Below are positions 6,782 to 25,866 of a stretch of DNA of 64,000 nt, piece after piece. The translations under genes and the position numbers were made by a program. The first letter of the stretch is position 1. Each line of letters begins with the position of its first letter. Source of the DNA: an uncultured bacterium (GTDB lineage: Bacteria; Ratteibacteria; UBA8468; B48-G9; DTJG01); assembly GCA_964532995.1 (NCBI GenBank), contig CAZHJN010000001.1, forward strand, positions 23,173 to 87,172, in the 5' to 3' direction. A model generated the notes under the pieces. That model had not been told where the DNA came from. It searched no databases and saw nothing but the letters and a program-made list of their open reading frames with translations.

Positions 6782-8020
6782 CCATAGTTTATATCCTCAA
6801 GATATAATCTCAGTAATTGCTCCAGAACCAACTGTTCTTCCACCTTCCCTTATCGCAAACCTCAACCCTTTCTCCATCGCCACTGGCATTATCAATTCTG
6901 CCTCCATCTCTATATTATCCCCGGGCATAACCATCTCTACACCTTCAGGCAACTTTATCGTACCGGTTACATCTGTCGTCCTGAAGAAAAATTGCGGCCT
7001 GTATCCAGTGAAAAATGGAGTGTGTCTTCCTCCCTCTTCTTTCTTCAATACATATACCTGCGCCTTGAATTTTTTATGAGGGGTGATACTGCCTGGCGCC
7101 GCTATTACCATACCTCTCTCTATCCCTTCCTTCTCAATCCCTCTCAATAACAACCCAACATTGTCTCCAGCTACAGCTTCATCAAGTATCTTCCTGAACA
7201 TCTCAACACTGGTAACAACTGTCTTGGGCATCTCTTCCCTTAATCCTATAATCTCTACCTCTTCCCCAGACTTTATCTTTCCTCTCTCCACCCTTCCTGT
7301 CGCCACTGTACCTCTTCCTGTTATCGAAAATACATCTTCAACCGCTAACAAAAATGGCTGGTCCACAAGCCTCACAGGCTCAGGTATGTAACTGTCAACT
7401 GCATCCATCAACTGCCATATCGGTCCGCATTTCTCACATTCCCTCTTACCACATCCACAACTCAATGCCTCCAATGCTGACCCCTTTATTATCGGTATCT
7501 CGTCTCCAGGAAATTCATACTTGCTCAATAACTCCCTCACCTCTAACTCCACCAGCTCTATCAATTCTTTATCCGCCAGCATATCCATCTTATTCAAAAA
7601 TACAACTATCGCAGGTACACCCACCTGCCTGGCTAACAGTATGTGTTCCCTCGTCTGCGGCATCGGACCATCAGGCGCACTCACCACCAGTATCGATCCA
7701 TCCATCTGCGCAGCACCGGTTATCATGTTCTTTATATAATCAGCATGCCCGGGACAGTCTATGTGCGCATAATGCCGCTTCTCAGTCTCATATTCTATAT
7801 GCGCTATCTGTATCGTTAATCCCCTCTCCTTCTCCTCCGGCGCTTTGTCTATGTCTTCATACTTCAAATGCTGCGCCTTCCCCGCCTTCGATAATACCAA
7901 CGTTATAGCACTGCTCAATGTCGTCTTCCCATGATCTACATGTCCTATCGTTCCTATGTTTACATGTGGCTTGCTCCTTACAAATTTCTCCTTTGCCATT
8001 GCCTTACCCCCTGGTTACAG
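6782..8020. repeat. 1239-bp direct repeat unit A (tuf plus 21 nt of 5'UTR and 15 nt of 3' flank); matches unit B at a +15374 offset
   Basis: All visually compared segments are identical. The encoded proteins are identical, and so are the antisense ORF translations at 7354..7908 and 22728..23282. Confidence 0.85.
6797..7999 (-). CDS. tuf: Elongation factor Tu, copy 1 (str-operon copy)
   Basis: The 400-aa product has the [17 protein letters not shown] and NKMD motifs. It sits downstream of fusA. A Cys4 insertion lies at aa 181-191. Confidence 0.97.
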
Positions 8021-10075
8021 GATTTCGCCTATTTTTTTCAACTGCTCATCTGAAATTTTTTGATAAAAACAGGGTTCTATTATATAACTTGCTCGCCCCT
8101 GTGTCAAGGACCTTATCACAGTCGGATAATCAAACATGGTGCGAAGGGGAACAAAACCTTTGATAATCTTATATATTCCATCATCACTCATTTCTTCAAT
8201 CTTACCACTTCGCATACCAAGATCCGCAATAATTTCTCCTATGTATTCCTGAGGTGTGGTCACCTCAATTTTCATAATGGGCTCAAGTAGAACAGGGCTT
8301 GCTTTTACGTAAGCATCTTTGAAAGCCATTGAGGCAGCTATCTTGAATGCTATATCATTTGAATCAACAGGATGAAAGGAGCCATCAATAAGCACAGCCT
8401 CCACATCAATTACCGGATATCCCTTCAAAGGACCAACCTCCATTGCCTCAATAATACCTTCTTCTATAGATGGTATAAATTGCGACGGAATTACTTCGCC
8501 TTTAAGGACACTGCTAAATCTGAAATTTGTACCTTGCGGTGCAGGTTTCAGTTCAAGAACAACATGTCCATAGTGTCCTTTTCCACCGCTTTGTTTTATA
8601 AACTTGCCTTCTCCTGTTGCCGATTGTGTGATGGTTTCCTTGTAAGCAACCTCCGGTTTTCCAAGTCGCACCTCAAGATTATTCTGTCTCTTCATTTTCT
8701 CGATGAGAACTTCAATATGCAACTGCCCCATTCCGGAAACAATTGTTTCTCCTGTTTCAGGATCCACCTTCAATCTAAAGGTCGGATCTTCCTCAGCCAT
8801 TTTTGCAAGAACCTGAAAAACCTTTTCCGCCTCTGCTTTGGTTTTTGGCTCAACCTTCATTTTCAGTACGGGTTCTGGAAATTTCATTTTTTCAAGAATT
8901 ATGGGAGCATCAGCTGAACCAAGTGTATCTCCTGTAAATGTTTCTTTAAGCCCAACAATTGCCACAATATCACCCGCAGCAGCCTTCTGAATTTCCTGGA
9001 ATCTGTTTGCATGGACTTCAAGTATTTTGAGTATTCTTTCCTTTCTTCTGCGTGTCCAGTTTGTAATTCTCATTCCAGGTGTAATTTCTCCAGAATAAAC
9101 TCTTGCATAAATGAGCCGACCAAAATATATGCCATTAACCACTTTAAAAGCAAGAACACATACTTTTTCATCAGCACCGGGTTTTCTGGCTATAATTTCG
9201 CCGGTTTCCGGATTTTCTCCAAAAATATCTCCTCTGTCAAAAGGGGAAGGTAAGTAATCAACTATTGCATCAAGAAGAAGTTTTGTGCCTTTGTTCCTTA
9301 AAGAAGCGCCGCAAAATACCGGATACAATCTTCTTGAAAGCACGCATTTTCTTATAGCAGAACGAATCAGTTCTGGTTCAATCTCAGTATCATGAAGATA
9401 CATATGCATAATCTCTTCATTGTTCTCCGCAACCCTTTCAAGTAGATGGTTTCTTGCATGAGAAACCTGTCGCCTCATATCATCAGGAACCTGCTCAAAG
9501 ATTGCATCATTTTCAGATTCAGATGGATAAAGAATCATTTGATTTTCTATCAGGTCAATTATTCCTTTAAAACCGGATTCTGTACCCACAGGAAGTTGAA
9601 GAACAAGACAGTGAACATTCAATTTGTTCTCAATCTGTGAAACAACACGGCTAAAATCCGCACCAATTCTATCAAGCTTGTTGATATAAATTATCTTGGG
9701 TATCCCGTACTTTTCACTCTGTCTCCATACCGTTTCTGACTGAGGCTGAACCCCTCCAACCGCGCAAAAAATACCAATGGCTCCATCAAGAACTCTCAGA
9801 GAGCGCTCAACCTCTGCGGTAAAATCAACATGCCCGGGGGTATCAATAATATTAATCCTGTGCCCTTTCCAGTAACAGGTGGTGGATGCTGATGTTATGG
9901 TTATACCCCGCTCTCTTTCCTGATCCATCCAGTCCATCGTTGTGGTTCCATCATCAACATCGCCAATGCGATTTATCCTGCCAGAATAATAGAGGAGTCT
10001 TTCTGTGGTTGTAGTCTTTCCAGCATCAATATGGGCAATGATCCCGATATTTCTCACATTATCAATATTCATCAT
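8015..10075 (-). CDS. fusA: Elongation factor G
   Basis: NIGIIAHIDAGKTTTTERLLYY... The start was chosen at the MMNIDN pair, with AAGGA 11 nt upstream. The ORF track start at 10120 adds 15 codons. Confidence 0.93.
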   Translation of the reverse strand: MMNIDNVRNIGIIAHIDAGKTTTTERLLYYSGRINRIGDVDDGTTTMDWMDQERERGITITSASTTCYWKGHRINIIDTPGHVDFTAEVERSLRVLDGAIGIFCAVGGVQPQSETVWRQSEKYGIPKIIYINKLDRIGADFSRVVSQIENKLNVHCLVLQLPVGTESGFKGIIDLIENQMILYPSESENDAIFEQVPDDMRRQVSHARNHLLERVAENNEEIMHMYLHDTEIEPELIRSAIRKCVLSRRLYPVFCGASLRNKGTKLLLDAIVDYLPSPFDRGDIFGENPETGEIIARKPGADEKVCVLAFKVVNGIYFGRLIYARVYSGEITPGMRITNWTRRRKERILKILEVHANRFQEIQKAAAGDIVAIVGLKETFTGDTLGSADAPIILEKMKFPEPVLKMKVEPKTKAEAEKVFQVLAKMAEEDPTFRLKVDPETGETIVSGMGQLHIEVLIEKMKRQNNLEVRLGKPEVAYKETITQSATGEGKFIKQSGGKGHYGHVVLELKPAPQGTNFRFSSVLKGEVIPSQFIPSIEEGIIEAMEVGPLKGYPVIDVEAVLIDGSFHPVDSNDIAFKIAASMAFKDAYVKASPVLLEPIMKIEVTTPQEYIGEIIADLGMRSGKIEEMSDDGIYKIIKGFVPLRTMFDYPTVIRSLTQGRASYIIEPCFYQKISDEQLKKIGEIL

Positions 10076-10214
10076 CTGAGAACAGTCCTTGCTTTTTCTT
10101 GATAAAACTTTTGTCGTCATATTTTTTATTTTCCCTGGATAAAATTTTCATCCTCCGTTAAACCACAATATATTCTTTAAAAAATATAAAAGATGCAAAC
10201 AGAAATTCAGGAAA

Positions 10215-10685
10215 TCACCAGCGGTAATGTGCGAATGCCCGGTTTGATTCTGCCATCTTATGCATTTCTTCCCTTTTTTTCACGCTTGCACCTTCATTCT
10301 TACTGGCCTCTATTATTTCCTCAACAAGACGCTCATACATCGGTTTTCCTTTACGAGCTCTTGCTGACTGAAGTATCCATCTGATCGCAAGCGACAGGCT
10401 TCTTTTCGGAACCACCTCAACCGGAACCTGGTAGGTTGCACCACCAACCCTTCTCGGACGCACCTCAAGGCGGGGCTTGACATTATTCAGAGCTTTTTTG
10501 AACACAGCAATTGGATCTTCTTTTGTCTTTTCGCTCAAAATGTCAAAACACCTGTACATTATCTTTTCGGCAAGAGACCTCTTGCCGTCCACCATCAAAG
10601 AATTAACGAATCTTGCAATTTCAAGATCATTGTATTTCGGGTCCGGTAAAAGTATTTTCTTCGCTCTGTATTTTCTTCTCGGCAT
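10215..10685 (-). CDS. rpsG: 30S ribosomal protein S7
   Basis: [28 protein letters not shown] is the uS7 start. Confidence 0.95.
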
Positions 10686-10687
10686 AA

Positions 10688-11095
10688 TTACTCCTGTTTT
10701 TGTGATTGCGCTGTTTGCTGTTTGCCTTTGGATTTTTTCGTGCCATAACGTGAACGGGATTTCTTTCTTCCATCAACCTGAGCTGTATCAAAAGCTCCTC
10801 TCACAATGTGATACTTGACGCCAGGTAGATCCTTAACGCGTCCACCACGCACCAGCACTATTGAGTGTTCCTGAAGATTATGACCTATGCCAGGAATATA
10901 AGCAACAACTTCTTTACCATTGCTCAATCTTACTTTGGCAATCTTTCTCAATGCAGAATTGGGCTTTTTAGGCGTCATCGTTTTCACATAAAGACATACA
11001 CCTCTTTTCAACGGATTACTGTCTAGGGCTGTTGATTTTGACTTTTTGATTTTGGGTCGTCTTCCAAATCTAATTAACTGATTAATTGTCGGCAT
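10688..11095 (-). CDS. rpsL: 30S ribosomal protein S12
   Basis: [24 protein letters not shown]...[10 protein letters not shown] is the uS12 sequence. Confidence 0.96.
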
Positions 11096-11131
11096 TCTTT
11101 CTCCTTTCTTTATAATCCCTTCTCCATTTTT

Positions 11132-14100
11132 TTATTCTCCACCAACAGCAACCTGGGTGGTTTGTTCCTGTTCTCTCACCTTATTGCTGAAAAATCCTGT
11201 ACCAGCGGGGATCAATTTCCCGAGTATAACATTTTCCTTAAGACCCTCAAGATAATCCTCCGCACCGGTAACCGCCGCATTTGTAATAACCTTCAGTGTT
11301 TCCTGGAATGATGCGGCAGAAATAAAACTCTCGCTGCTTAAAGCCACCCTTGTGATGCCAAGAATCAATGGCTCATAAGTTGCACGTTTTTTCCCTCTTG
11401 GTAATGACTCATTTATCTGCTGAATTCGCATCCTGTCCACCTCTTCACCTTCAAGAAGATAGGTGTCTCCAGGATCAGTAACTCTTACCCTGGAAAGCAT
11501 CTGTCTGATAATAATCTCCATGTGTTTGTCATTTATATTAACGCCCTCCACCTTATAAACTTTCTGTATCTCATTGAGAAGGTATTCCTGAACCTTCTTT
11601 TCACCCTGAGTCCTTAAAATATCAGTCAAAACTACCGGTCCATCAGTAAGTTTTGTGCCGCTTACAACATGATCGCCATTTGAAACCAGAAGATGTTTGC
11701 CATATGGAACCCTGTATTCTTTCACCTGGCCTGTCTCACTGGTTATTCTTATAATTCTGGTTCCCTTTTCTCCCGAATGCAGGGATACTGTTCCTTCAAT
11801 CTCACTCAAAATAGCAGGATTCCTTGGAGGTCTTGCTTCGAAAAGTTCAGATACCCTTGGAAGACCTCCGGTAATATCCTGCACCCGGCCAACAACCCTT
11901 GGAGTCTTTGCTATAATATCGCCCGGTAAAACGTTCTGACCGTCTTCAACCAGTATGCTTGTATTAACAGCAAGATAATGAAAACCAACTATCTTTTGAG
12001 CAATAATATCACCTTTTTTAACCCTGTCTCCTTCTTTAACAATGATCTCTGTATGGGTGTGAGTTGGAACTGTTATCTTTTGAACAATCTGACCACCCGT
12101 ATCTGTGATCAATATTGATATTTTTTCTTCCTTTTTCTCTTTTTCATCTTTTATATTTTCCTGTTTTTCCTCATATTCTTTTTCTATCTTAATTTTTCCA
12201 TTCTTATTGGCATAAATCTTTTCCAGTATCTCTATCTCTGGTTCCAGTTCATCCTGATGTTCTATGATGGTTCTCTTGGTAACTTTTGCTGAAGCATCAA
12301 ATTCTTCTTTCACGGTTTTATTGTTTATATCCTTATATCTTACAAATCCCTCTTTTTCAGCTAAGATTTGAACAGCATAAGGATCCCATGTCGCAAGAAC
12401 CTGGTCTTTTTTAACCTTTTTCCCCTGTTCAACATGAAGTATCGTACCAACAAATACCGCATTACTTTCAAGCAGACGACCTCTTTCATCCTCAATGTCA
12501 ATTGTTCCCTCTCTGCTGAGAACAACTATTTTATTCTCTCTGTTTTTAACAACTCTAAGGTTTTCTGAGTACCTGACAACACCATCAGAATGAGCAACAA
12601 TCCTGGCAGGACCAATTGCTCTTGTTACAGTGCCTCCAACGTGGAAAGTTCTCAATGTAAGCTGCGTGCCAGGTTCACCTATGGACTGGGCAGCGACAAC
12701 ACCGACGGCTTCTCCAAAATTAACAAGCTTTTGCCTTGAAAGATCAGCACCATAACATTTTGCGCATACACCTCTTTCAGCTTTACAGGTGAGCACTGAT
12801 CGAATCTTTATTCTTTCAACACCGAGTGCCGCAATTTTCTCGGCTTTTTCTTCATCAATCAATTCACCCGCTCTTACAAGAACTTCATCAGTGATAATAT
12901 CAACTATCGGATCAAATGCGACACGACCCACAACCCTATCTTTAAGTGGAATGATAACCTTTTCTCCATCAGTGAGCGCGCTGATGTAAATACCATCTGC
13001 TGTACCGCAATCCTCCATTGTTACTATAACACTGTGCGCAACATCAACAAGCCTGCGGCTTAAATAACCGGCATCGGATGTTTTCAGAGCAGTATCAACA
13101 ACACCTTTTCTACCTCCGTGAATTGAAATAAAATATTCAAGCAGGGGTAGGCCTTCTCTGAAGTTGGCTATAACCGGAGTGGTGATAATCTCGCCCATTT
13201 CACCTGTTGCCTTCTTGGTCGGCCTTATCATCAGCCCCCGCATTCCCGCAAGCTGATTGACCTGGGAACGATTTCCCCTCGCTCCGGATTCAACCATCAT
13301 TATAAGTGAATTTATCCTGAACGGTTCCAATGAAGTATCTTTTCTCAAAGTTTCAAATACATCGTTGGAAATTCTATTGGTAACAGATGTCCACAAATCT
13401 ATAATTCGGTTGTATCTTTCACCCTCTGAAATAAGACCTTTTCTGTAGTCTTTTTCAATTCTCATAACCTCTTTTTTGGTTTCCTCTATTACCTTCTCCT
13501 TTGATTCCGGAATTTTAAGATCATCCACTCCAATACTTAATCCTCCCCTGGTCGCATATGTAAAACCAAGCTCCTTCACCTCATCAAGAAACTGAACAGT
13601 TCTGAAATAACCGCATTCAATCAAAATCTTTTTCACAATATGTTCCAGAGCTTCGATATTGATAAGACGATTTTGATAGGGAATCTCTTCTGGAAGGATT
13701 TCGTTAAACAGAATACGGCCAACAGTTGTAATAATTATTTCTCCTTTGTTATTTCTTACTCTCACAGGTCTGTGCAATTCAAGAAGGCCATTTTCATAAA
13801 GAATTTTTGCCTCATCAAAACTGTAAATTGCCTCTTTTGCTTTTTCCCTGTTTTTGCTGTCTTTCGATGTATCGCCACCATAGACGCTCTGTTCACTCTG
13901 GAAGGTCAAATAATAACAACCCAGAACAATATCTCTTGTTGGTGTAACAATGGGTCTGCCATTTGCAGGAGATAAAATATGAAGGCTGGATTTCATTAAA
14001 AGGTCAGCTTCAAACTGAGCTTCAACTGTAATTGGCACATGCACACTCATTGTATCACCATCAAAGTCAGCATTAAAAGCCGTGCAGACAAGCGGGTGAA

Positions 14101-17100
14101 TCCTGAGAACATTTCCTTCCATCAAACGAGGATCAAATGCTTGAATACTCAAACGATGAAGTGTTGGCTGACGATTGAGAAGCACCGGATGATTACGCGT
14201 AACCTTCTCAAGGATTTCCCAGACTTCCGGTCTGTTCTCTTCAAGGGCTCTCTTGGCGCTTCCCAGCGTATGAAAATATTCTTTTTTCCTCAACTCTCTC
14301 AAAACAAATGGACTGAACAGTTCAAGCGCCATCTGTTTTGGTAAACCACACTGGTGAAGTTTAAGCTTCGGGTCAACAACAATAACCGCTCTTCCTGAAT
14401 AATCAACCCTTTTACCTAAAAGATTCTGTCTGAATCTTCCCTGCTTGCCCCTTAAGGCTTCACTCAATGATTTAAGCGGTCTTTTACCTCTGCCAAGAAC
14501 AGGTGTACCATACCTGCCATTATCCATAAGAGCATCAACTGCTTCCTGAAGCATTCTCTTCTCATTTCTTATTATAATGTCAGGCGCCTGCAGTTTGATC
14601 AGTTTCCTGAGACGATTATTTCTATTTATTACCCTTTGATAAAGGTCGTTAAGATCAGATGCAACAAACCTACCGCCATCAAGAGGAAGAAGCGGCCTTA
14701 AATCCGGAGGTATGACAGGAATTATGGAGGTTACAAGATATTCTGGTTTGACTTCTGTTTTCATCAACCCCTCAATCATCCTTAACTTTTTTACAAGATT
14801 TCTCCTGCTTGTGTGCTCTTTTTTCTTTTTGCTGCCTTTCAATCGATCCTTAACCTTTGCCATCTCCTTTTCAAGATCTATCTTTTTCAGCAGTTCATAA
14901 ATGGCTGAAGCGCCAATATCAGCATGAAATCTATTTCCGTATTTAGCAAGATTTTCCCTGTATTGTTCCTCTGTCAAAAGCTCTTTTTCATCAAGAGGCG
15001 TATCACCGGGATCTATCACAATATATCTATCGTAATAAAGAACTTTCTCAAGCATCACCTGTGTTAAGTCAAGAAGCACACCGAGCCAGTTGGCGCTGCT
15101 TTTAAACATCCAGACATATGAAACCGGTGTGGCAAGTTCAATGTGTCCCATCCTTTCGCGTCGTACATCAGATGTTGTTACCTCAACTCCGCATCGGTCG
15201 CATATAATACCGCGAAATCTCTGTTTCTTAAACTTTCCGCAGGAACATTCCCAGTCCTTCACAGGACCAAAAATCTTCTCGCAGAAAAGACCATCTCTCT
15301 CAGGTTTGTTTGTTCTGTAGTTCAATGTCTCTGCTTTTTTAACCTCTCCGTATGACCATGAACGGATTACCATCGGAGGCGCGATCCTTATTGTAACCAC
15401 ATCTCTATCTTCATTGTTCTTTTTCTTTTTCTCTATTCTCAGATCAAAACCCAGACCATTGAGTTCCTTTGTAAGAACATGAAAGGATTCAGGAAGATTT
15501 TCTTCCTGATAGTCCAATCCCTTGACAATGCTTTCATATGCCTTCTTACGACCCTTAATATCATCGCTTTTTATTGTGAGCATTTCTCTGAGGGTATAAC
15601 CAGCGCCATACCCCTCAAGAGCCCAGACCTCCATTTCACCAAAGCGCTGTCCACCAAACTGGGCTCTGCCACCAAGCGGCTGCTGAGTTATCAATGAATA
15701 AGAACCAACAGAACGAGCATGAAACTTCTCATCAGCCAGATGGATGAGTTTCATCATATATATTGAACCAACTGTTACCGGCTGCAAGAATGGTTCTCCT
15801 GTCTGTCCGTCATAAATCCTGGTTTTACCGTCCTCAGGAAGACCCGCTTCTCTTAAGTTCTGTTTGATCTCAAATTCCTTTATGCTTTCAAAAACAGGTG
15901 TTTCAGCTGAATAGCCAAGCGTTTTTAATGCCCATCCAAGATGTGTTTCAAGAATCTGTCCGATATTCATTCTTGATGGAACTCCAAGGGGATTTAAAAC
16001 TATATCAACCGGAGTACCATCTTCAAGAAATGGCATGTCTTCTTCAGGAAGAACAACAGATATAACACCTTTATTACCATGTCTGCCACTCATTTTATCG
16101 CCAATAGCAACCTTCTTCTTTGTCGCTATTTCAACCAATACCTTGCATATCACATTGGGTTCAAGTTCTGAACCTCTGCGTACCTTTATCTTTTCATTGC
16201 TGGCTTCCTTTTCAAGCTTTTCAAGCTCTGTAATACCAATTTCAACAATCTTTTTAATCTCTTCTTTCACAGAATTATTATCAATGGACCTTACAATTCG
16301 ATCCCAGCTTTCAATACTTGTGGTCAGCCTTGTGGAAGGAATCCTGCGAGCAGAAAGAGTATCCTTAATTCTGCCGGTGATAATCGTCCTGACAATTTTC
16401 TTCTTTTCTGCAAGATCTTTCTCTATTTTTTCAATCTGTACCTTTATGGATTCTTCAGGAATTTTATCAGCGGGATAATAGGTCTTTACATTGATAACAA
16501 CTCCGGAAACACCGGGTGGCACAATTAAAGATGTATTTGCCACGTCTCTCGCTTTTTCACCAAAGATAACCCTCAAAAGTTTTTCCTCAGGAGTTAATTC
16601 TGCTTCGCCCTTGGGTGTGATTTTTCCCACAAAGATATCTCCTGGCTTTACCTCTGCACCAACCCTGATAATGCCATTTTTATCAAGATTCCTGAGTTCT
16701 TCTTCCGATGCATTGGGAAGATCCGAGGTGATCTCTTCTGGTCCCCTTTCTGTTTCCTGCGCTGTAACCTCAAATTTTTCAATATGAATTGAAGTGAAGG
16801 TATCCTCTTTAACAAGTTTTTCACTCAGAATAATGGCGTCCTCAAAATTGTATCCCTGCCATGGCATAAAGGCTACAAGAAGGTTTCTACCAAGAGCAAG
16901 ATCTCCTTCAGGCGAAACCGCAGGACCATCTGAAATAATCTGTCCCTTTTTGACCTTTTGCCCCGGAGAAACAAGTGGTCTCTGATGAAAACAGGTATCC
17001 TGGTTTGTCCTGCGGAATGTTTGCAGGTGGTAAACATCTTTATGCTGCCAGGGAAAAATTCCTTTTTCATCCCTGTCTATGATTATGGTCTTTGCATCAA

Positions 17101-19057
17101 CATATTCCACTGTGCCGGAGTTTTTAGCTCTTAAAATCACCCCGGAATCCATCACAACTCTTTTTTCTATGCCTGTCCTCACAAGAGGTCTTTCGGTTCG
17201 CAGAAGTGGCACAGCCTGTCTCTGCATGTTTGATCCCATCAGAGCCCTGTTTGAATCATTGTGTTCAAGAAATGGAATCAACGATGCGCTCAGTCCAACT
17301 ATCTGTTTGGGTGAAATACCTATAAGTTCAATCTGATCTTTTGTGGCTTCGGTAAACTCTCCTCCTTTGGATCTGACACGAATTATTTCCTGTTTTATAA
17401 TACCGGTTTCAGGATCGTAAGGGACATCTGGAGGAGCCACAACATAATTATCTTCCTCATCTGCAGAAACATATACAGCCTCATCAAACAAAACTTTTCC
17501 ATTTTTAACTCTATAATAAGGAGTTCTGATAAAACCATTATTATCAACATCAGCATATACCGTAAGTGAATTGATCAATCCAACATTTGCCCCTTCCGGG
17601 GTTTCTATCGGACAGACCCTTCCAAAATGTGTATAATGAACATCCCTCACCTCAAAACCCGCTCTTTTCCTTTCTTTCACTCCCCCTTCTCCAACCGCAG
17701 TAAGCCTTCTCTTGTGAGTGAGTTCCGCAAGAGGATTAATCTGATCAAGAAACTGGGAAAGCTGATTTCGAGCAAAAAATTCCTCCACAGCTGTGGAAAA
17801 AATTCTGCTGTTTAAAATATCCTGCGGTACAATGGGGCCTGTTTTATCTATAATTGCCATCTTCTCTTTCACAAAATGAACAAGCCTTATCAGACCTTCA
17901 TAAATATGTTCTTTTACAAGTTCAGCCGAAGTTCTCACCCTCTTGTTGCCAAGATGATCAATATCATCAGTTTCACCCTTGCCTCTTTCTATAAGATCGA
18001 GCAGGTACTTCAGTGTTCTTACTATATCCTCTGTCGTGAGATGTAATTCTTTAAGAGTTAGCCCGAGTTTTTTATTAATCTGCAATCTGCCTGCCGGAGA
18101 AAGATCGTACTGGTCGGAAGTGAAGAAAAGCCTTTTAAAGAAACTTCTTGCCTCTCTTTCTTCCATAGGAAAACCGGGTCTGAGTTCCAGATAAATTTTC
18201 TTTATCGCTTCTTCCTGAGTCTTTATTTCGGCATCCTTTTCGAGGGTTGTCTTAATAATACTGTCCGCTGGCATCCTGTCAGGAGACTCATAAAAAAGTG
18301 AAATTATTTCTTCATCAGTATATCCAAGTGCTTTTAGAAGTGTGGTCGCATAGACTTTTCTTTTCCCAAAATAGGCATAAAGGCAGGTTGTGTTATGATG
18401 AAGTTCTGGATGAAATTCCATCCAGAGACCGCGGGCTGGAAAAATTCGCGCGGAATACGTAGCCTTCTGGCCGATTTCTTCTTCTTCTTTAAAATACACT
18501 CCGGGAGACCTCTGTATCTGATTGACAACCGCCCTTTCAATACCATTGATGATAAAAGTACCGCGTTCTGTCATAAGTGGAATGAGTCCGAGATAAACAT
18601 CCTGTCCTTCTCTCACACTTTCAACCCTGTTATTGATCTTATCTTTCTTGTAAAGCCTGAATTTAACCTTAAATCTTCCACCATAGGTAATACCTTTTTC
18701 TATGCATTCAACCTCAGACTCAACAGGATCTTCTATTGTGTAGTTTATGTATTCAAGAAACAAAGATCTATCATCGCTTGAAATCATATAATGCTTTTCT
18801 CCAGGGAAAAGTTCTGTCTCAGGAAAAACTTTCCTGAGAACCTCCTCCAGCCCCATGTTCTCTCTTTTTTCAGGGTCAACATCCTTCTGGAGAAACCTTC
18901 TGTAAGGTTCTATCTGAACCTTCAGTAAATCAGGAATCTGCACATGTCTTCTGTCAACATAACCTTCCATATTCTTCTGAACAGTCTGAAGGAAATCCCC
19001 GCGAGGTTCAACCTGAGCCTTTAATCCGTCTGAAACCCGCACATGTTTTTTTTCCAT
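11132..19057 (-). CDS. rpoBC: Fused DNA-directed RNA polymerase subunits beta-beta' (RpoB module about 15431..19057, RpoC module about 11132..15430) in one 2641-aa ORF
   Basis: The product has the beta N-terminus (VQIPDLLKVQIEPYRRFLQ), the beta C-terminus (LTKELNGLGFDLRIE), a KKKKNNEDRD linker and the beta' N-terminus (IRSWSYGEVKKAETLNYRTNKPERDGLFCEKIFGPVKDWECSCGKFKK). NADFDGDT lies further on. No stop codon interrupts the frame. Confidence 0.9.
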   Translation of the reverse strand: MEKKHVRVSDGLKAQVEPRGDFLQTVQKNMEGYVDRRHVQIPDLLKVQIEPYRRFLQKDVDPEKRENMGLEEVLRKVFPETELFPGEKHYMISSDDRSLFLEYINYTIEDPVESEVECIEKGITYGGRFKVKFRLYKKDKINNRVESVREGQDVYLGLIPLMTERGTFIINGIERAVVNQIQRSPGVYFKEEEEIGQKATYSARIFPARGLWMEFHPELHHNTTCLYAYFGKRKVYATTLLKALGYTDEEIISLFYESPDRMPADSIIKTTLEKDAEIKTQEEAIKKIYLELRPGFPMEEREARSFFKRLFFTSDQYDLSPAGRLQINKKLGLTLKELHLTTEDIVRTLKYLLDLIERGKGETDDIDHLGNKRVRTSAELVKEHIYEGLIRLVHFVKEKMAIIDKTGPIVPQDILNSRIFSTAVEEFFARNQLSQFLDQINPLAELTHKRRLTAVGEGGVKERKRAGFEVRDVHYTHFGRVCPIETPEGANVGLINSLTVYADVDNNGFIRTPYYRVKNGKVLFDEAVYVSADEEDNYVVAPPDVPYDPETGIIKQEIIRVRSKGGEFTEATKDQIELIGISPKQIVGLSASLIPFLEHNDSNRALMGSNMQRQAVPLLRTERPLVRTGIEKRVVMDSGVILRAKNSGTVEYVDAKTIIIDRDEKGIFPWQHKDVYHLQTFRRTNQDTCFHQRPLVSPGQKVKKGQIISDGPAVSPEGDLALGRNLLVAFMPWQGYNFEDAIILSEKLVKEDTFTSIHIEKFEVTAQETERGPEEITSDLPNASEEELRNLDKNGIIRVGAEVKPGDIFVGKITPKGEAELTPEEKLLRVIFGEKARDVANTSLIVPPGVSGVVINVKTYYPADKIPEESIKVQIEKIEKDLAEKKKIVRTIITGRIKDTLSARRIPSTRLTTSIESWDRIVRSIDNNSVKEEIKKIVEIGITELEKLEKEASNEKIKVRRGSELEPNVICKVLVEIATKKKVAIGDKMSGRHGNKGVISVVLPEEDMPFLEDGTPVDIVLNPLGVPSRMNIGQILETHLGWALKTLGYSAETPVFESIKEFEIKQNLREAGLPEDGKTRIYDGQTGEPFLQPVTVGSIYMMKLIHLADEKFHARSVGSYSLITQQPLGGRAQFGGQRFGEMEVWALEGYGAGYTLREMLTIKSDDIKGRKKAYESIVKGLDYQEENLPESFHVLTKELNGLGFDLRIEKKKKNNEDRDVVTIRIAPPMVIRSWSYGEVKKAETLNYRTNKPERDGLFCEKIFGPVKDWECSCGKFKKQRFRGIICDRCGVEVTTSDVRRERMGHIELATPVSYVWMFKSSANWLGVLLDLTQVMLEKVLYYDRYIVIDPGDTPLDEKELLTEEQYRENLAKYGNRFHADIGASAIYELLKKIDLEKEMAKVKDRLKGSKKKKEHTSRRNLVKKLRMIEGLMKTEVKPEYLVTSIIPVIPPDLRPLLPLDGGRFVASDLNDLYQRVINRNNRLRKLIKLQAPDIIIRNEKRMLQEAVDALMDNGRYGTPVLGRGKRPLKSLSEALRGKQGRFRQNLLGKRVDYSGRAVIVVDPKLKLHQCGLPKQMALELFSPFVLRELRKKEYFHTLGSAKRALEENRPEVWEILEKVTRNHPVLLNRQPTLHRLSIQAFDPRLMEGNVLRIHPLVCTAFNADFDGDTMSVHVPITVEAQFEADLLMKSSLHILSPANGRPIVTPTRDIVLGCYYLTFQSEQSVYGGDTSKDSKNREKAKEAIYSFDEAKILYENGLLELHRPVRVRNNKGEIIITTVGRILFNEILPEEIPYQNRLINIEALEHIVKKILIECGYFRTVQFLDEVKELGFTYATRGGLSIGVDDLKIPESKEKVIEETKKEVMRIEKDYRKGLISEGERYNRIIDLWTSVTNRISNDVFETLRKDTSLEPFRINSLIMMVESGARGNRSQVNQLAGMRGLMIRPTKKATGEMGEIITTPVIANFREGLPLLEYFISIHGGRKGVVDTALKTSDAGYLSRRLVDVAHSVIVTMEDCGTADGIYISALTDGEKVIIPLKDRVVGRVAFDPIVDIITDEVLVRAGELIDEEKAEKIAALGVERIKIRSVLTCKAERGVCAKCYGADLSRQKLVNFGEAVGVVAAQSIGEPGTQLTLRTFHVGGTVTRAIGPARIVAHSDGVVRYSENLRVVKNRENKIVVLSREGTIDIEDERGRLLESNAVFVGTILHVEQGKKVKKDQVLATWDPYAVQILAEKEGFVRYKDINNKTVKEEFDASAKVTKRTIIEHQDELEPEIEILEKIYANKNGKIKIEKEYEEKQENIKDEKEKKEEKISILITDTGGQIVQKITVPTHTHTEIIVKEGDRVKKGDIIAQKIVGFHYLAVNTSILVEDGQNVLPGDIIAKTPRVVGRVQDITGGLPRVSELFEARPPRNPAILSEIEGTVSLHSGEKGTRIIRITSETGQVKEYRVPYGKHLLVSNGDHVVSGTKLTDGPVVLTDILRTQGEKKVQEYLLNEIQKVYKVEGVNINDKHMEIIIRQMLSRVRVTDPGDTYLLEGEEVDRMRIQQINESLPRGKKRATYEPLILGITRVALSSESFISAASFQETLKVITNAAVTGAEDYLEGLKENVILGKLIPAGTGFFSNKVREQEQTTQVAVGGE

Positions 19058-19098
19058 ATTCTCCAGCCATTGTTAAGAATTCAGTAAAGTTACAAACT

Positions 19099-19497
19099 TT
19101 ACTTTATTTCAACCGTCGCACCAGCAGCTTCAAGTTTCTTCTTTATTTCCTCGGCTTCTTCCTTACTCACTTTTTCCTTCAATGGTTTCGGAAGCGACTC
19201 CACAAGATCTTTGGCTTCCTTCAATCCAAGATTTGTGATGGCTCTAACCTCTTTGATAACCTGTATTTTGTTTGATCCAAAACTGGTCAGAATAATATCA
19301 AAAGAGGTTTTCTCTTCAACAGGGGCTGCTGCCTGTTCAGCAGAAGCTGCAACAGGTGCTATCCCTGCTGCTGCCATCACAGGTTGAACGCCAAATTTAT
19401 CTTCAAGTTTTTTGGCAAGATCGGCCAATTCCATTGCTGTAAGACTGCCAATCGCATCAACGAGAACATCCACAGAAAGTTTTTTCTCTTCAACCAT
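19099..19497 (-). CDS. rplL: 50S ribosomal protein L7/L12
   Basis: The 132-aa product has an Ala-rich hinge and ends [42 protein letters not shown]. Confidence 0.94.
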
Positions 19498-20020
19498 TTC
19501 CTTTCTCCTTTTGTTCAGAAAATGTTTTCAATACCAGAATCAAACGTGTTAACGGATACTTAACGTTATAAACAAGGCTGCTCAATGGAGCCTTAATTCC
19601 ACCGATAACTTTTGCCTGCAATGTCTTTTTCGTAGGAAGATTACCAAGCTTCTCCAGAGTATCAACTGCCATGAGAGCATTGTTGAGAACGCCAAACTTA
19701 ATTTTAATTTTCCCTGAAGATTTTGAAAATTTCAGCACCTCCTTTATAATCTCACATTCATCACCTGTATTACTCCAGATAAGAACATTCGGACCCTCCA
19801 TAAACTTTGTTGCCTCGTCCAGAGAACAGGATTGCAATGCCATCCTTGCGAGAGTATTTTTAACAACCATGACATTTGATGAATGCTTTTTCATTTCCCT
19901 TCTGAGTTCCTCCATGCCCTTGACTGTAATCCCTGAAAATTCTGCAAAAATGGATACCTTGCTCGAACCCAGTTCATCAATTATGAACTTCAAAATTTTT
20001 GCCTTGTCCGTTTTATTCAT
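19490..20020 (-). CDS. rplJ: 50S ribosomal protein L10
   Basis: uL10-like sequence located between rplA and rplL. Confidence 0.88.
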
Positions 20021-20039
20021 AAAATCCTGTCCTGTTCGA

Positions 20040-20756
20040 TCAAGAAATTGTAGATTTTATTTCCTGTGAAATCTTATTGATGTTTAAGGGAAAAGATGGC
20101 CCCATCGTTGAAGAAATATGAGCACTCTTCAGATAAACTCCTTTTACTCCCTGCGGCCTGGCCGCCAGAATTGTCCTCAATGCAGCGTAAAAATTCTCAA
20201 GGAGTTGTTCCTGAGAAAATGAAACCCTTCCGATCGGAAGATGCAGATTGCCATCCCTATCCATTTTGAACTCAATTCTACCTTTTTTTAGCTCTTCAAC
20301 AATTTTTTCTATCTCAAATGTAACAGTGCCAGAGCGTGGATTTGGCATAAGGCCTCTCGGTCCAAGTATCTTCCCGAGGGCTGTGATATTTTTCATCATA
20401 TCAGGTGTTGCCACAACCGCCTGAAAATCAAGCCATCCTCCTTTGATTTTCTCTATCAGTTCTGTACCACCATAATAGTCGGCCCCTGCTTTTTTTGCCT
20501 TTTCAATATTCTCACCCTGTGCAAAAACGAGAACTTTTATCTGTTTACCACTACCGTGTGGAAGATTTACAGAACCCCTGACCGGTTGCTGGATCTTTTT
20601 CAAATCCAGACCAAGATGAACTGAAAGGTCAACCGTCTCATCAAAACGGGTGGTTGAATTGTTTTTGATAAAAGCGATTGCCTCCTCAGGAGTATAGGTT
20701 GTTTTTTCCTCAATCCTTTCCTGAACAGATTTATATCTTCTGGATCTTTTTTTCAT
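20040..20756 (-). CDS. rplA: 50S ribosomal protein L1
   Basis: The 238-aa uL1 family product carries FDETVDLSVHLGLD. Confidence 0.92.
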   Translation of the reverse strand: MKKRSRRYKSVQERIEEKTTYTPEEAIAFIKNNSTTRFDETVDLSVHLGLDLKKIQQPVRGSVNLPHGSGKQIKVLVFAQGENIEKAKKAGADYYGGTELIEKIKGGWLDFQAVVATPDMMKNITALGKILGPRGLMPNPRSGTVTFEIEKIVEELKKGRIEFKMDRDGNLHLPIGRVSFSQEQLLENFYAALRTILAARPQGVKGVYLKSAHISSTMGPSFPLNINKISQEIKSTIS

Positions 20757-20765
20757 CTTAACTCC

Positions 20766-21209
20766 TTAATCAACAACTTCTATTCCCATACTTCTTGCAC
20801 AACCTTCAACTATTTTCACTGCCTGCGCCAGATCATCCGTGTTAAGATCCGGCAGTTTTATCTTTGCTATTTCTTCAATTTGTCGTCTCGTAAGTTTGCC
20901 AACTTTTTCTTTATTGGGAACTCCAGAACCTTTAACGATATTAGCTGCCTTTTTCAACAATGAAGCTGTGGGTGGCGTTTTTAATTGATATTTGAAAGAT
21001 CTGTCCCCAAATATCGTCAATACAACCGGTATGATATCCCCTTCCTTCCCTTTTGTAGCCGCGTTAAAAGACTTGCAGAATTCCATAATGTTAACTCCAT
21101 GCTGTCCGAGTGCCGGACCAACCGGCGGCGCAGGCGTTGCCTGACCTGCCGGAATCTGTAACTTAACTATCGCCTTTACCTGTTTTGTGGTTTTTTCTGC
21201 CATGTTCAC
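20766..21209 (-). CDS. rplK: 50S ribosomal protein L11
   Basis: [33 protein letters not shown] is the uL11 signature. Confidence 0.95.
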
Positions 21210-21739
21210 ACCTTTTCAACCTGCCAGAAATTAAGTTCTAAAATTGTTGACCTTCCGAAAATTGATATACTGACCTTTAATCTTTCTCTTTCATTATTTA
21301 CATCTTCAACGACCCCTGTAAAATCAAGAAATGGTCCATCTGTTATAACAACTTTATCGCCCCTGCTAAATTCAATCTTTGGAACGGGTTTTGCCTTTCT
21401 TTCCTCTATCTCCTGCAGGAGATTGTCAATTTCACTTCCCTGCAGTGGAGATGGACTTGTACCTGCACCGAGAACATTAAAAACACCATTTGTTGTCTTA
21501 ACAATGTGCCATGTTAAATCATCAACATCATCATCAGCTTCAATCAAAAGATATCCTGGAAAAAACTTTCTCGGTTTTACAGTTTTCTCACCTTTTGTTG
21601 TTTCCACAACATCCTCAGTAGGAATAACTATCTGTTTGATTTTCATATTTCCGGCATTGACCAGTTTTGACTCAATAAGTCTCTTGATTTTTTCTTCATG
21701 CCCTGTTCTAACATGCACAATAAACCATTTACTCATCAC
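21206..21739 (-). CDS. nusG: Transcription termination/antitermination factor NusG
   Basis: NGN and KOW domains are present ([13 protein letters not shown]...[21 protein letters not shown]). Confidence 0.92.
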
Positions 21740-22155: not shown

Positions 22156-23394
22156 CCATAGTTTATATCCTCAAGATATAATCTCAGTAATTGCTCCAGA
22201 ACCAACTGTTCTTCCACCTTCCCTTATCGCAAACCTCAACCCTTTCTCCATCGCCACTGGCATTATCAATTCTGCCTCCATCTCTATATTATCCCCGGGC
22301 ATAACCATCTCTACACCTTCAGGCAACTTTATCGTACCGGTTACATCTGTCGTCCTGAAGAAAAATTGCGGCCTGTATCCAGTGAAAAATGGAGTGTGTC
22401 TTCCTCCCTCTTCTTTCTTCAATACATATACCTGCGCCTTGAATTTTTTATGAGGGGTGATACTGCCTGGCGCCGCTATTACCATACCTCTCTCTATCCC
22501 TTCCTTCTCAATCCCTCTCAATAACAACCCAACATTGTCTCCAGCTACAGCTTCATCAAGTATCTTCCTGAACATCTCAACACTGGTAACAACTGTCTTG
22601 GGCATCTCTTCCCTTAATCCTATAATCTCTACCTCTTCCCCAGACTTTATCTTTCCTCTCTCCACCCTTCCTGTCGCCACTGTACCTCTTCCTGTTATCG
22701 AAAATACATCTTCAACCGCTAACAAAAATGGCTGGTCCACAAGCCTCACAGGCTCAGGTATGTAACTGTCAACTGCATCCATCAACTGCCATATCGGTCC
22801 GCATTTCTCACATTCCCTCTTACCACATCCACAACTCAATGCCTCCAATGCTGACCCCTTTATTATCGGTATCTCGTCTCCAGGAAATTCATACTTGCTC
22901 AATAACTCCCTCACCTCTAACTCCACCAGCTCTATCAATTCTTTATCCGCCAGCATATCCATCTTATTCAAAAATACAACTATCGCAGGTACACCCACCT
23001 GCCTGGCTAACAGTATGTGTTCCCTCGTCTGCGGCATCGGACCATCAGGCGCACTCACCACCAGTATCGATCCATCCATCTGCGCAGCACCGGTTATCAT
23101 GTTCTTTATATAATCAGCATGCCCGGGACAGTCTATGTGCGCATAATGCCGCTTCTCAGTCTCATATTCTATATGCGCTATCTGTATCGTTAATCCCCTC
23201 TCCTTCTCCTCCGGCGCTTTGTCTATGTCTTCATACTTCAAATGCTGCGCCTTCCCCGCCTTCGATAATACCAACGTTATAGCACTGCTCAATGTCGTCT
23301 TCCCATGATCTACATGTCCTATCGTTCCTATGTTTACATGTGGCTTGCTCCTTACAAATTTCTCCTTTGCCATTGCCTTACCCCCTGGTTACAG
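22156..23394. repeat. 1239-bp direct repeat unit B (second tuf copy)
   Basis: See unit A. Identity ends at the same flank positions on both sides. Confidence 0.85.
22171..23373 (-). CDS. tuf: Elongation factor Tu, copy 2 (tRNA-linked tufB-like copy)
   Basis: The protein is identical to copy 1. It is preceded by tRNA-Gly and tRNA-Thr and followed by tRNA-Trp-secE-nusG. Confidence 0.97.
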
Positions 23395-23751: not shown

Positions 23752-25866
23752 TCAAATTTTATTTTCTTTCTGTTCCCTCCTGGATCTGACAGAAAAAACA
23801 AAAGTGTGGACTTTCAAAACAATCCAGAAAGCAATAAAACCGATGGCCGAACCGACAAGAATATCCCTGAAGAAGTGTACTCCTGAAGAAACCCTGGAAA
23901 AAGCAACTGCGATTGCAATAAGATAAAAAGGTACTTTTAACACAGGAAAAAGCCAGCCTAAGAAAGCAGCAGTTGAAAAAGCCGTTTGCGAGTGTCCTGA
24001 CGGAAAGGAACCCGATTTCAAAACAGGTCCTGTGATATTAATATTCATTTTCTCACCAAAATAAGCAACAGGTCTGGGCGAAGGGCAAATCTCTTTCAAA
24101 ATATGGACAAGTATCGCGCCAACAATAATAATAATTATGAACATACCCGTATATTTCAGAAAATCCTTTCTCCTTGAAAAAAAAAGAATCAGGGACACCA
24201 CCAAAACAGCTACTTCGGTTGAACCAAGATACCCTGTATTGAACAATAAAATTGCAAAAAATTTATGTTCTGCACTTATCCTGTTAACAGCAAGAAAAGC
24301 CCGGTTATCAACAGAAATCAAATCTCTCCAGAAATTTCTTTCATAGAATTCAGCAGAGTTAAAAACGGATCTGTCTGTTTCATAAGTCTTGAAATCCACA
24401 CATTTATAAAAATAAAAAGTTTTTACCTTCTTATTTCTGTAATATATTTCAAGTGTTATCGGTTTTTCTATCTTTCCAAATTTATAAATCTTATCAGGTG
24501 AATCCCTGAAGTGTTCATCAGTAAAAAAAATTCCTGTTTTTCCATAAAGGGTTTTTCTTAAATTTTTATTTCTTTGCCAGAAGTCATATTGATCCACTCT
24601 TTTACTCAGGCAATAAAGATGACTTTGTGCGGTATGAGCTGGAAGATAAAATGCCATCTGGCTGGCAAGATAAAATTTATGAGTAAACAAAAAAGTATCA
24701 GTTCTGTTTTCTTCACGAAAATATTCTGCAAGATAAGCGGCCTTATCCCATCCATAAAGGTCACCTGTCGGATCAATTTCAGAAGGCAATGGCAAACAGT
24801 GAAAAACGACCTGAACAGGAATCAAAGAAGTAAATAAAGCACCTGTATACAGAACAATATGCCTGAAAAATCTCCTGATTCTATTGGAGTTTTCGCCACA
24901 TTTTAAAAGAAAGTTTGCACCGGGTATGATAAGTGTGAGATATCCAGGAGCTGGCCAGTGTGGAAGAATTTCATTTGATAGAGAAGCATAACCAAATACA
25001 GCAAAAACAGGAAAGGCAAAGATAAAAAGGAGTTTTTCAAAGTTATCTGATAGAGAAAAAAATCTCCTTGCAGAATTAATAAAAACCAGAGCCAGCAATA
25101 TCCAGATAAAAGGTGATATTACAGCCATCTGCGCGACTGAATTTTGAATAAAAATACCCGGATTAAAAAAATTTTTTTCACCCAATCCGTGACTGAATTG
25201 AAAAGCAAAAGAAGCCCAGTGATTGTTATAATTCCAGATTAAGACAGGGCTGAAAACAAGCAGGCTGATAAAAAATCCACAGTATAAATATTTTTTCTTA
25301 AGATGGCTTCGCATATGTTTGTCAGCTATGACAAAAATAAAAATTGACAGATATAAAAAGAAACCGGTATATTTTGTAAGTAATGACAATCCAACCAGAA
25401 AACCAAGGAGATACCATAAACTGTTTGTACCGGTGAAACGAATTTTCCATAGCGTCATTATTGATAACAACCAGAAAACTGAAAGAATCGTATCCGGAAC
25501 AGTCATAATTCCACCGAGAACAGAAAAAAGAGGAGTCAGACAGAAAATAACTGCTGCCCAGAACCCGCAGGAAGCGGAATAAACATTTCTTCCCATTGTA
25601 AATAATAACCAGAAACAGATTGAAGAAGAAATAAGAGCAGGCATTCTGACAGCGAGTGGCGTATTACCCAGTATTTTCAAAAAAGGCCAGACAACATAAC
25701 CAACAAGCGGTGGATGGTCAAAATATGAAAATGAGGGATGAACAGCATACTGATAATAATGAGCCTCATCACCGGTTAACCCGTAAAAGGATGCTATGAA
25801 AAGTCTGATTAAAAAAGAAACGCCGAAAATCAAAAATAGATAGTTTGTATATTTTCTTTCATCCAT
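23752..25866 (-). CDS. Fusion of a GT-C-fold glycosyltransferase (ArnT/PMT_2-like, GT83/GT39) to a C-terminal PAP2 phosphatase domain
   Basis: The N-terminal multi-TM region matches ArnT/PMT_2 (YGLTGDEAHYYQYAVHPSFSYFDHPPLVGY). The C-terminus has the complete PAP2 triad: K-x6-RP (KEICPSPRP), PSGH, and SR-x5-H-x3-D (SRVSSGVHFFRD). Confidence 0.75.
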   Translation of the reverse strand: MDERKYTNYLFLIFGVSFLIRLFIASFYGLTGDEAHYYQYAVHPSFSYFDHPPLVGYVVWPFLKILGNTPLAVRMPALISSSICFWLLFTMGRNVYSASCGFWAAVIFCLTPLFSVLGGIMTVPDTILSVFWLLSIMTLWKIRFTGTNSLWYLLGFLVGLSLLTKYTGFFLYLSIFIFVIADKHMRSHLKKKYLYCGFFISLLVFSPVLIWNYNNHWASFAFQFSHGLGEKNFFNPGIFIQNSVAQMAVISPFIWILLALVFINSARRFFSLSDNFEKLLFIFAFPVFAVFGYASLSNEILPHWPAPGYLTLIIPGANFLLKCGENSNRIRRFFRHIVLYTGALFTSLIPVQVVFHCLPLPSEIDPTGDLYGWDKAAYLAEYFREENRTDTFLFTHKFYLASQMAFYLPAHTAQSHLYCLSKRVDQYDFWQRNKNLRKTLYGKTGIFFTDEHFRDSPDKIYKFGKIEKPITLEIYYRNKKVKTFYFYKCVDFKTYETDRSVFNSAEFYERNFWRDLISVDNRAFLAVNRISAEHKFFAILLFNTGYLGSTEVAVLVVSLILFFSRRKDFLKYTGMFIIIIIVGAILVHILKEICPSPRPVAYFGEKMNINITGPVLKSGSFPSGHSQTAFSTAAFLGWLFPVLKVPFYLIAIAVAFSRVSSGVHFFRDILVGSAIGFIAFWIVLKVHTFVFSVRSRREQKENKI

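Follow-up and report, generated by a model that had tools for sequence, protein, structure and literature searches.

A natural fusion of the RNA polymerase beta and beta' subunits in a single open reading frame of an uncultured bacterium

Helicobacter and Wolbachia encode RNA polymerase beta and beta' as a single polypeptide (PMC6403173, PMC9696931, PMC7483510), and the fused RpoBC of Helicobacter and Wolinella was treated by Zakharova and coworkers in 1998 and 1999 (cited in PMC9696931). In a 64,000-nucleotide (nt) stretch of DNA from an uncultured bacterium (contig CAZHJN010000001.1, positions 23,173 to 87,172), hereafter called the window, an initial annotation had described a fused rpoB-rpoC gene that resembled neither of these families. 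The locus thus raises two questions, namely, whether the fusion is genuine and whether it arose on its own. Our analysis indicates with high confidence that the gene encodes the catalytic core of the housekeeping RNA polymerase in the form of a single beta-beta' chain of ∼2,612 to 2,641 amino acids (aa) and ∼300 kDa, generated by an ancestral fusion.

According to the list of open reading frames (ORFs), positions 11132 to 19057 of the minus strand constitute one ORF of 2641 codons, with an ATG start and a TAA stop codon at 11132-11134. The translation contains no internal stop codons, and the probability of finding 2641 codons without a stop, calculated from the base composition of the window, is ∼1e-84. 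The Pfam domains Rpb2_1, 2, 3, 45, 6, and 7 were found in order within aa 44-1210, all of them preceding the beta' domains Rpb1_1 to 5, which lie within aa 1221-2567. The NCBIfam models for the separate subunits gave scores well above their cutoffs. Thus, for beta, TIGR02013 scored 1496 bits (cutoff, 801; aa 265-1208) and NF001616 scored 1437 bits (cutoff, 896; aa 37-1209, profile positions 11-1095 of 1096), while for beta', TIGR02386 scored 1608 bits (cutoff, 963.5; aa 1221-2625, profile positions 2-1145 of 1147). The beta module (aa 30-1209, window 15431-18970, minus strand) extends from the probable start Met30 to the end ...LTKELNGLGFDLRIE at aa 1209 (nt 15431), and is followed in the same frame by a connector of 10 residues (aa 1210-1219, window 15401-15430, minus strand) and then by VVTIRIAPPMVIRSWSYGEVKK...FGPVKDWECSCGKFKK, the start of the beta' module (aa 1220-2641, window 11135-15400, minus strand). 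The order at the junction is therefore ...LNGLGFDLRIE(1209)-KKKKNNEDRD(1210-1219)-VVTIRIAPPMVIRSWSYGEVKK..., and this arrangement of a complete beta followed by a complete beta' in one ORF was reproduced in independent sequences. The initial annotation had proposed a single fused polypeptide of 2641 aa, and the continuous ORF and the order of the Pfam and NCBIfam domains confirmed it; its coordinates, the strings that it quoted, and the K-rich linker were all found where it had placed them, on the minus strand, which it had left unstated.

Both modules retained their characteristic motifs. In beta, these were the rifampicin-region motif QLSQFLDQINPL (aa 432-443), GDKMSGRHGNKG (aa 986-997), and GEMEVWA (aa 1140-1146), and in beta', the catalytic Mg-binding motif NADFDGD (aa 1662-1668), a first Zn cluster of the form C-x-C-x12-C-x2-C (C1271/C1273/C1286/C1289), a second Zn site spanning aa 2017-2101, an intact bridge-helix region, and the trigger loop (TFHVGG at 2137 and DITGGLPRV at 2394). 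The Zn cysteines were invariant in the alignment A1, and barrel-sandwich hybrid Pfam matches were obtained at aa 2326-2476. Since all the motifs were intact, a pseudogene was rejected. An SI3-like insertion of 251 aa was observed inside the trigger loop (aa 2143-2393, window 11852-12649), carrying a K/E-rich low-complexity stretch, KNGKIKIEKEYEEKQENIKDEKEKKEEK.

A search of the whole product against 5.8 billion proteins revealed that the best 120 relatives, with identities from 100% to 44% and lengths of ∼2,450 to 3,160 aa, were all fused and contained both domain sets, the junction being continuous in every one of them. Close relatives annotated as beta only or beta' only turned out to be contig-end fragments that stop mid-domain. 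The database proteins P0001, P0121, and P0122 correspond to the same gene as that of the window, and an exact look-up of the 2641-aa product in the databases yielded no match, given that the database copies differ in the start codon or in one residue. Among the nearest relatives, a cluster at 83% identity was labeled Candidatus Ratteibacteria and another at 82% Candidatus Omnitrophota (MCM8805898.1), and those at 66% and at 50-67% identity were labeled Ratteibacteria or Candidatus Omnitrophica; Ratteibacteria figures as a candidate phylum at NCBI.

The depth of this group was assessed with a beta tree of 302 sequences (the beta parts of 117 fused proteins, 115 complete unfused betas, and the beta ORFs of named genome loci), built by neighbor joining on 1118 well-occupied columns with 60 bootstraps. 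The window protein fell within a block of 42 sequences, all of them fused, which was recovered in 60/60 bootstraps, as was its 32-member core. The lowest beta identity within the block was 52%, the same value as that between Gammaproteobacteria and Bacteroidota in this alignment, and the nearest complete unfused betas were 55-56% identical to the window protein on the tree columns. A beta-only search, which constitutes weak evidence, placed the nearest complete split betas at no more than 55% identity, and no split member was found within the 42-sequence clade. The parsimonious reading of these data is that one ancient fusion was inherited by the whole clade. One protein labeled Omnitrophica, P0270 (ADurb.Bin277), is an unfused beta of 1259 aa; therefore, either the fusion marks a sublineage or the labels of the metagenome-assembled genomes (MAGs) are loose.

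The connector was conserved in both length and character. In the clade members that were scored, the distance from GEMEVWA to IRSWS was 87-92 aa, being exactly 91 in 23 of 31, and in fused proteins of other lineages it ranged from 87 to 138 aa. The consensus of the members with a spacing of 91 was E-K-R-K-[I/E]-[G/N]-[G/E/D]-[E/K]-[E/S]-[K/R]-[E/D]-[V/I]-V-T-I-R-I-A, that is, a basic beta side, a center of turn formers (G/N/D/S), and an acidic beta' side. When compared with the chains of solved structures, aa 1052-1209 aligned with residues 1183-1340 of the 1342 of Escherichia coli beta, and aa 1209-1450 with residues 8-246 of E. coli beta', so that the connector matched residues ∼8-17 of the E. 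coli beta' N-terminal tail. No linker has been added with respect to E. coli, the fusion being shorter than both E. coli termini together, and, as judged from this alignment, the connector is a remnant of the beta' N-terminal tail. A sequence search of the PDB retrieved separate beta and beta' chains only, with no fused chain. A fragment of 521 aa (aa 1040-1560) was modeled with AlphaFold2 from a 59-sequence alignment (mean predicted local distance difference test [pLDDT] score, 72; predicted template modeling score, 0.70). The model predicted two strands, at aa 1204-1213 and aa 1216-1225, separated by a turn of two residues (N1214-N1215), with a pLDDT of 74-87 for the block, which would place the connector at the tip of a beta-hairpin. 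We infer that the fusion may have turned the last strand of beta and the first strand of beta' into one hairpin, in which the K/R residues facing D/E residues could form cross-strand salt bridges; such a conversion of a strand pair into a hairpin would account for the fixed length of the connector and for its K/R versus D/E pattern.

Three other explanations of the locus were considered. The most trivial one is that the genes are split in the real genome and that an indel or base error in the junction DNA GAAAAAGAAAAAGAAC removed a stop codon, a frameshift error that the initial annotation had itself named as a possible source of the fusion. The junction is indeed A-rich, fused and split versions coexist in one unrelated cluster of Verrucomicrobiia (at least 90% identity), and a converse case is known in one H. 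pylori strain, in which the fused gene is split by a one-base frameshift (PMC6403173). However, the A runs extend over no more than 5 nt, and a contig from an independent metagenome assembly (JGI metagenome 3300022556, Ga0212121_10006989, locus L082) matched window positions 8307-19844 at 99.92% over 11,538 nt, with 9 mismatches and 0 gaps, and contained the same uninterrupted gene with the frame kept. Dozens of relatives at 54-83% identity, with other codons at the junction, were also fused with equal spacing, and no leftover stop, spacer, or beta' start was present, the connector being too short to hold even the combined E. coli termini. The frameshift artifact is thus effectively refuted, its probability being practically nil. 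It is also improbable, although less extremely so, that the fused gene gives rise to separate subunits, either by internal initiation or by proteolysis in the KKKK connector. In-frame start candidates do exist at the junction, limited to GTG (V1220) and ATG (M1229), and an exposed lysine-rich turn could be sensitive to proteases. Nevertheless, no Shine-Dalgarno (SD)-like motif was found at a usable distance before either candidate, versus 32 of the 45 window genes (71%) that have one, and a protein initiated at M1229 would lack VVTIRIA, the conserved first strand of beta'. Furthermore, the connector is conserved and predicted to be structured instead of a floppy loop, and the H. pylori fusion was reportedly observed as one polypeptide by Zakharova and coworkers in 1998. 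The initial annotation had noted the lack of a stop, a ribosome binding site, or a start between the modules, which agrees with these data. Because the start candidates lack an SD and M1229 would lose the VVTIRIA strand, translation as one chain of ∼300 kDa is probably the best reading, and it would be in agreement with the reports on Helicobacter and with the activity of the fusion engineered in E. coli.

The remaining alternative, horizontal transfer from a Helicobacter- or Wolbachia-type fused gene or shared ancestry with it, would be consistent with the common architecture (beta N-terminal and beta' C-terminal) and with the fact that both fused-type models were the top NCBIfam matches by raw score. 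Those scores were, however, less than half the curated cutoffs: 2461 bits versus 5372 for the Helicobacter-type model NF007172, in 4 stretches, and 2344 bits versus 4632 for the Wolbachia-type model NF011417, while a positive control from the Helicobacter block of the tree, P0119, reached 5901 bits on NF007172. The window beta was 48% identical to that of Helicobacter muridarum, lower than the 55% of many unfused betas, and the H. muridarum connector (locus L052), of ∼27 aa, bore no likeness to the 10 aa of the window. In the beta tree, the Helicobacter block was located elsewhere, separate from the window clade in 60/60 bootstraps, and fused and unfused states interleaved with 21 Fitch changes, a rough figure, given the neighbor-joining tree, the sample enriched in fused proteins, and the possibility that some of the fusions are recent mutations or errors. 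This interleaving nevertheless argues for many independent fusion events. A common origin with either family is therefore very improbable, and since the all-fused clade recovered in every bootstrap is separate from the Helicobacter block, the data support an independent origin of the window fusion. In this respect the initial annotation fared well: the lack of resemblance to Helicobacter and Wolbachia was borne out by the model scores and the beta identity, the unrelated linker by the H. muridarum connector, and the independent fusion in another lineage by the separate clade of 42. It had also contemplated a relative of Helicobacter or Wolbachia as the source, and the nearest named relatives were instead MAGs of Candidatus Omnitrophota and Ratteibacteria.

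Comparison with the known systems places the window gene more precisely. The Helicobacter/Wolinella RpoBC (NF007172, PRK09603) shares with it a single ORF with beta before beta', the condition of sole housekeeping core enzyme, and the rplL-rpoBC-rpsL neighborhood, but it belongs to Campylobacterota, is longer (∼2,890 aa versus ∼2,612-2,641 aa), and has a connector of ∼27 instead of 10 aa. The Wolbachia RpoBC (NF011417, PRK14844) is likewise a natural single-ORF fusion, in this case from an alphaproteobacterial endosymbiont lineage, and is set apart by the model score. For its part, the split rpoB plus rpoC arrangement (TIGR02013 plus TIGR02386) resembles the window gene in having both halves full length and above the cutoff, in the motifs, and in the operon position, but the window gene has no stop, spacer, SD, or start between the halves and, in E. 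coli numbering, lacks ∼2 residues at the end of beta and ∼7 at the beginning of beta'. In the engineered E. coli beta::beta' protein (Severinov et al. 1997), the C terminus of beta was also joined to the N terminus of beta'; that construct shows the tether to be compatible with assembly and activity and is a mechanistic precedent for the way in which the window protein should work. It is artificial, whereas the window connector is natural, does not reach the length of both E. coli termini together, and has been conserved throughout a deep clade. A synthetic rpoB-rpoC fusion is described as functional in E. coli (10.1101/2021.11.05.467461, in a statement resting on its reference 21, Severinov et al. 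1997).

The following scheme is proposed for the origin of the gene. In an ancestor of the deep uncultured clade (labeled Omnitrophota/Ratteibacteria), the stop codon of rpoB would have disappeared together with the spacer between the genes and the initial few codons of rpoC, which would have linked residue ∼1340 of beta (E. coli numbering) straight to the beta' N-terminal tail at residue ∼8. The C terminus of beta and the N terminus of beta' are adjacent in RNA polymerase, and therefore a connector of 10 residues would need only a tight turn. With a basic strand (KRKK), a G/N/D turn, and an acidic E/D-rich strand, the intersubunit strand pair would have become an intramolecular beta-hairpin, and the tethered protein, together with alpha2 and omega, would yield a core enzyme of the normal type. 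An obligate 1:1 stoichiometry and the skipping of the beta-beta' docking step of assembly would be expected. The continuous ORF, the intact modules, the inheritance throughout the clade, the conserved connector, and the distinctness from the known fused families are direct results of the analysis, and any selective benefit of the fusion would be a matter of supposition. At the protein level, a junction-spanning peptide region would be, for example, ...GFDLRIEKKKKNNEDRDVVTIR..., and separate subunits would have masses of ∼135 and ∼160 kDa.

We lean slightly towards a broader reading, in which this is maybe the oldest and largest natural beta-beta' fusion, fixed in a phylum-deep clade of the Omnitrophota/Ratteibacteria type, with a connector shaped by selection into a beta-hairpin, and in which rpoB-rpoC fusion is recurrent and convergent, with ∼20 state changes. 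The lineages embraced by this reading are NPL-UPA2, Caldisericota, Elusimicrobiota, Nitrospirota (Ca. Magnetobacterium), Acidobacteriota, Verrucomicrobiia, Paceibacterota, and a probable Burkholderia-related fungal endosymbiont. Several points weigh against the main interpretation of the gene given above: the taxonomic labels of the MAGs conflict (Omnitrophota versus Ratteibacteria); the tree is a neighbor-joining one on a sample biased towards fused proteins; the beta-only search missed fused relatives, presumably because of its word filter, so the failure to find a close relative with split genes is not exhaustive; the beta part of the AlphaFold2 model is partly of low confidence (pLDDT below 50 at model residues 58-103), the hairpin being a prediction; and expression as one chain is deduced from the sequence and from the analogy with Helicobacter pylori instead of from protein-level evidence.

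Natural tethering of the two subunits is usually presented as peculiar to Helicobacteraceae and Wolbachia, and the window gene represents a third, independent, and much more deeply fixed fusion with a short and conserved connector of its own. As such, it is a useful synapomorphy for placing MAGs of the Omnitrophota/Ratteibacteria type, a caution for marker-gene pipelines in which rpoB and rpoC are assumed to be separate genes, and a blueprint from nature for single-chain RNA polymerase cores. The fusion is not mechanistically surprising, because engineered E. coli fusions work and H. pylori tolerates the splitting of its fused gene; the understanding of transcription is unchanged, and a specialist would be interested but not surprised.

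Fused proteins were also found outside the clade, assigned by label or by tree placement to NPL-UPA2, Caldiserica, Elusimicrobia, Candidatus Magnetobacterium casensis, Bryobacterales, and Verrucomicrobiia, and a MAG of Candidatus Paceibacterota (DATJQA010000074.1, locus L035) was fused as well. In a representative library of 1.84 billion sequences at 50% identity, ∼20-25 full-length representatives spanned the junction in one stretch among the best 150 of 2,990 matches at an E value of ≤1e-30. Among the matches listed for named-genome loci with FGEMEVWA (at least 80, from many phyla), 56 of the 58 that could be scored were split, the fused ones being only H. muridarum and the Paceibacterota MAG; this set is biased towards in-frame rpoB/rpoC pairs, and no close relative of the window was among the matches listed. 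Overall, public MAG and metagenome records already contain the fusion by the hundreds, in many lineages, and IMG names several of the proteins "subunit beta-beta'"; it is a minority state, yet not rare. The initial annotation, which knew of fusions only in Helicobacter and Wolbachia, was in agreement with the literature searched, but the rarity that it implied is overstated. No description of an rpoBC fusion outside Helicobacter/Wolinella and Wolbachia was found in the literature searched, whose coverage was partial, so that absence from it is not proof, and the papers on rpoBC fusion within this partial coverage made no mention of Omnitrophota, Ratteibacteria, or the other fused lineages. It is already established that this architecture exists, that the enzyme tolerates it, and that databases contain it, while the depth of the clade, the connector, and the breadth of the convergent fusions appear to be undescribed in print.

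Some of these fused genes showed peculiarities of their own. Fused rpoBC proteins have been deposited under the fungi Podila epicladia and Podila clonocystis (KAG0084170.1 and KAG0018680.1, cluster of P0114); because they cluster next to Burkholderia loci, they most likely come from a Burkholderia-related endosymbiont present in the fungal assemblies. The Verrucomicrobiia cluster of P0083 (at least 90% identity) contains fused proteins of 2660 aa on up to 20 contigs, the longest of 981 kb, together with separate betas of 1262 aa and beta' subunits of ∼1392 aa on contigs of up to 249 kb, which looks like a lineage that toggles between the fused and split states, or like sequencing errors that mimic toggling. 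In locus L081 (ENA ERZ26167216, a 3.5-Mb contig), a fused rpoBC of 3132 aa (P0108) has neither rplL nor rpsL on its flanks, its neighbors being a GFO/IDH/MocA oxidoreductase and a radical-SAM gene; the lineage is placed near Acidobacteriota loci, and its fused gene no longer resides in the conserved ribosomal cluster.

The 5' end of the window gene deserves separate comment. Homologues start with ME(T/Q)KH(V/L)QIP(D/N)LLKVQIEPY..., 5 to 10 residues ahead of the conserved IPDLL, and the window ORF has 29 additional codons, MEKKHVRVSDGLKAQVEPRGDFLQTVQKN, ahead of MEGYVDRRHVQIPDLLKVQIEPYRRFLQ. These first 29 codons (18971-19057, minus strand) repeat, in tandem and in frame but in degenerate form, the segment that comes after them. 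The duplication, of ∼87 nt, occupies window positions 18884-19069 (minus strand); both copies start with GAATATGGAA and encode a K(A/V)Q(V/I)EP...FLQ motif, and the score of their alignment in a DNA self-comparison was matched by none of 2000 shuffles. The extra 5' copy is absent from relatives at 79-83% identity. Given the starts of the homologues and the nature of the first 29 codons, the functional start is probably Met30 (nt 18970), with a product of 2612 aa, and the ATG at 19057 would lie upstream of the true start. The choice of start codon leaves the conclusion on the fusion unchanged.

The neighborhood is the canonical conserved ribosomal/RNA polymerase cluster, in the order tRNA-Gly, tRNA-Thr, tuf, tRNA-Trp, nusG, rplK, rplA, rplJ, rplL, rpoBC, rpsL, rpsG, fusA, tuf, and S10-operon genes, all on the minus strand. 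As identified with Pfam, nusG, rplK, rplA, rplJ, and rplL (19099-21739) lie upstream of rpoBC, and rpsL, rpsG, fusA, and tuf (6797-11095) downstream. The ORF list of the window contained no second ORF of rpoB or rpoC size. The remainder of the window carries ordinary chromosomal housekeeping genes (fab genes, plsX, secDF, a prfA-type release factor gene, obg, and dnaK). The window as a whole has a G+C content of ∼40%, and the Rfam matches obtained in it were tRNAs only.

A perfect inverted repeat of 9 bp with a 3-nt loop (AGTAAAGTT-TGT-AACTTTACT) is located just upstream of rpoBC (window 19083-19103, minus strand), overlapping the rplL stop codon; it is AT-rich, with no T run after it, and it may be a counterpart of the rplL-rpoB attenuator or occur by chance. 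The two tuf (EF-Tu) copies (6782-8020 and 22156-23394) are 100% identical over 1239 nt, the identity covering the whole 400-codon ORF plus 15 nt on the 3' side and 21 nt on the 5' side before ending abruptly, which could be due to gene conversion of the tufA/tufB type or to a collapsed or duplicated assembly. An ORF of 781 aa (41999-44344, minus strand), adjoining genes for a CBM9-like protein, an arabinose-isomerase-like protein, and an FGGY kinase, gave no Pfam match at an E value of ≤1e-5. Finally, a protein of 704 aa (23752-25866, minus strand) carries both a PMT_2 glycosyltransferase domain (aa 50-211) and, in its C-terminal part, a PAP2 phosphatase domain (aa 576-687), and its gene adjoins those of GT2 and GT9 glycosyltransferases.

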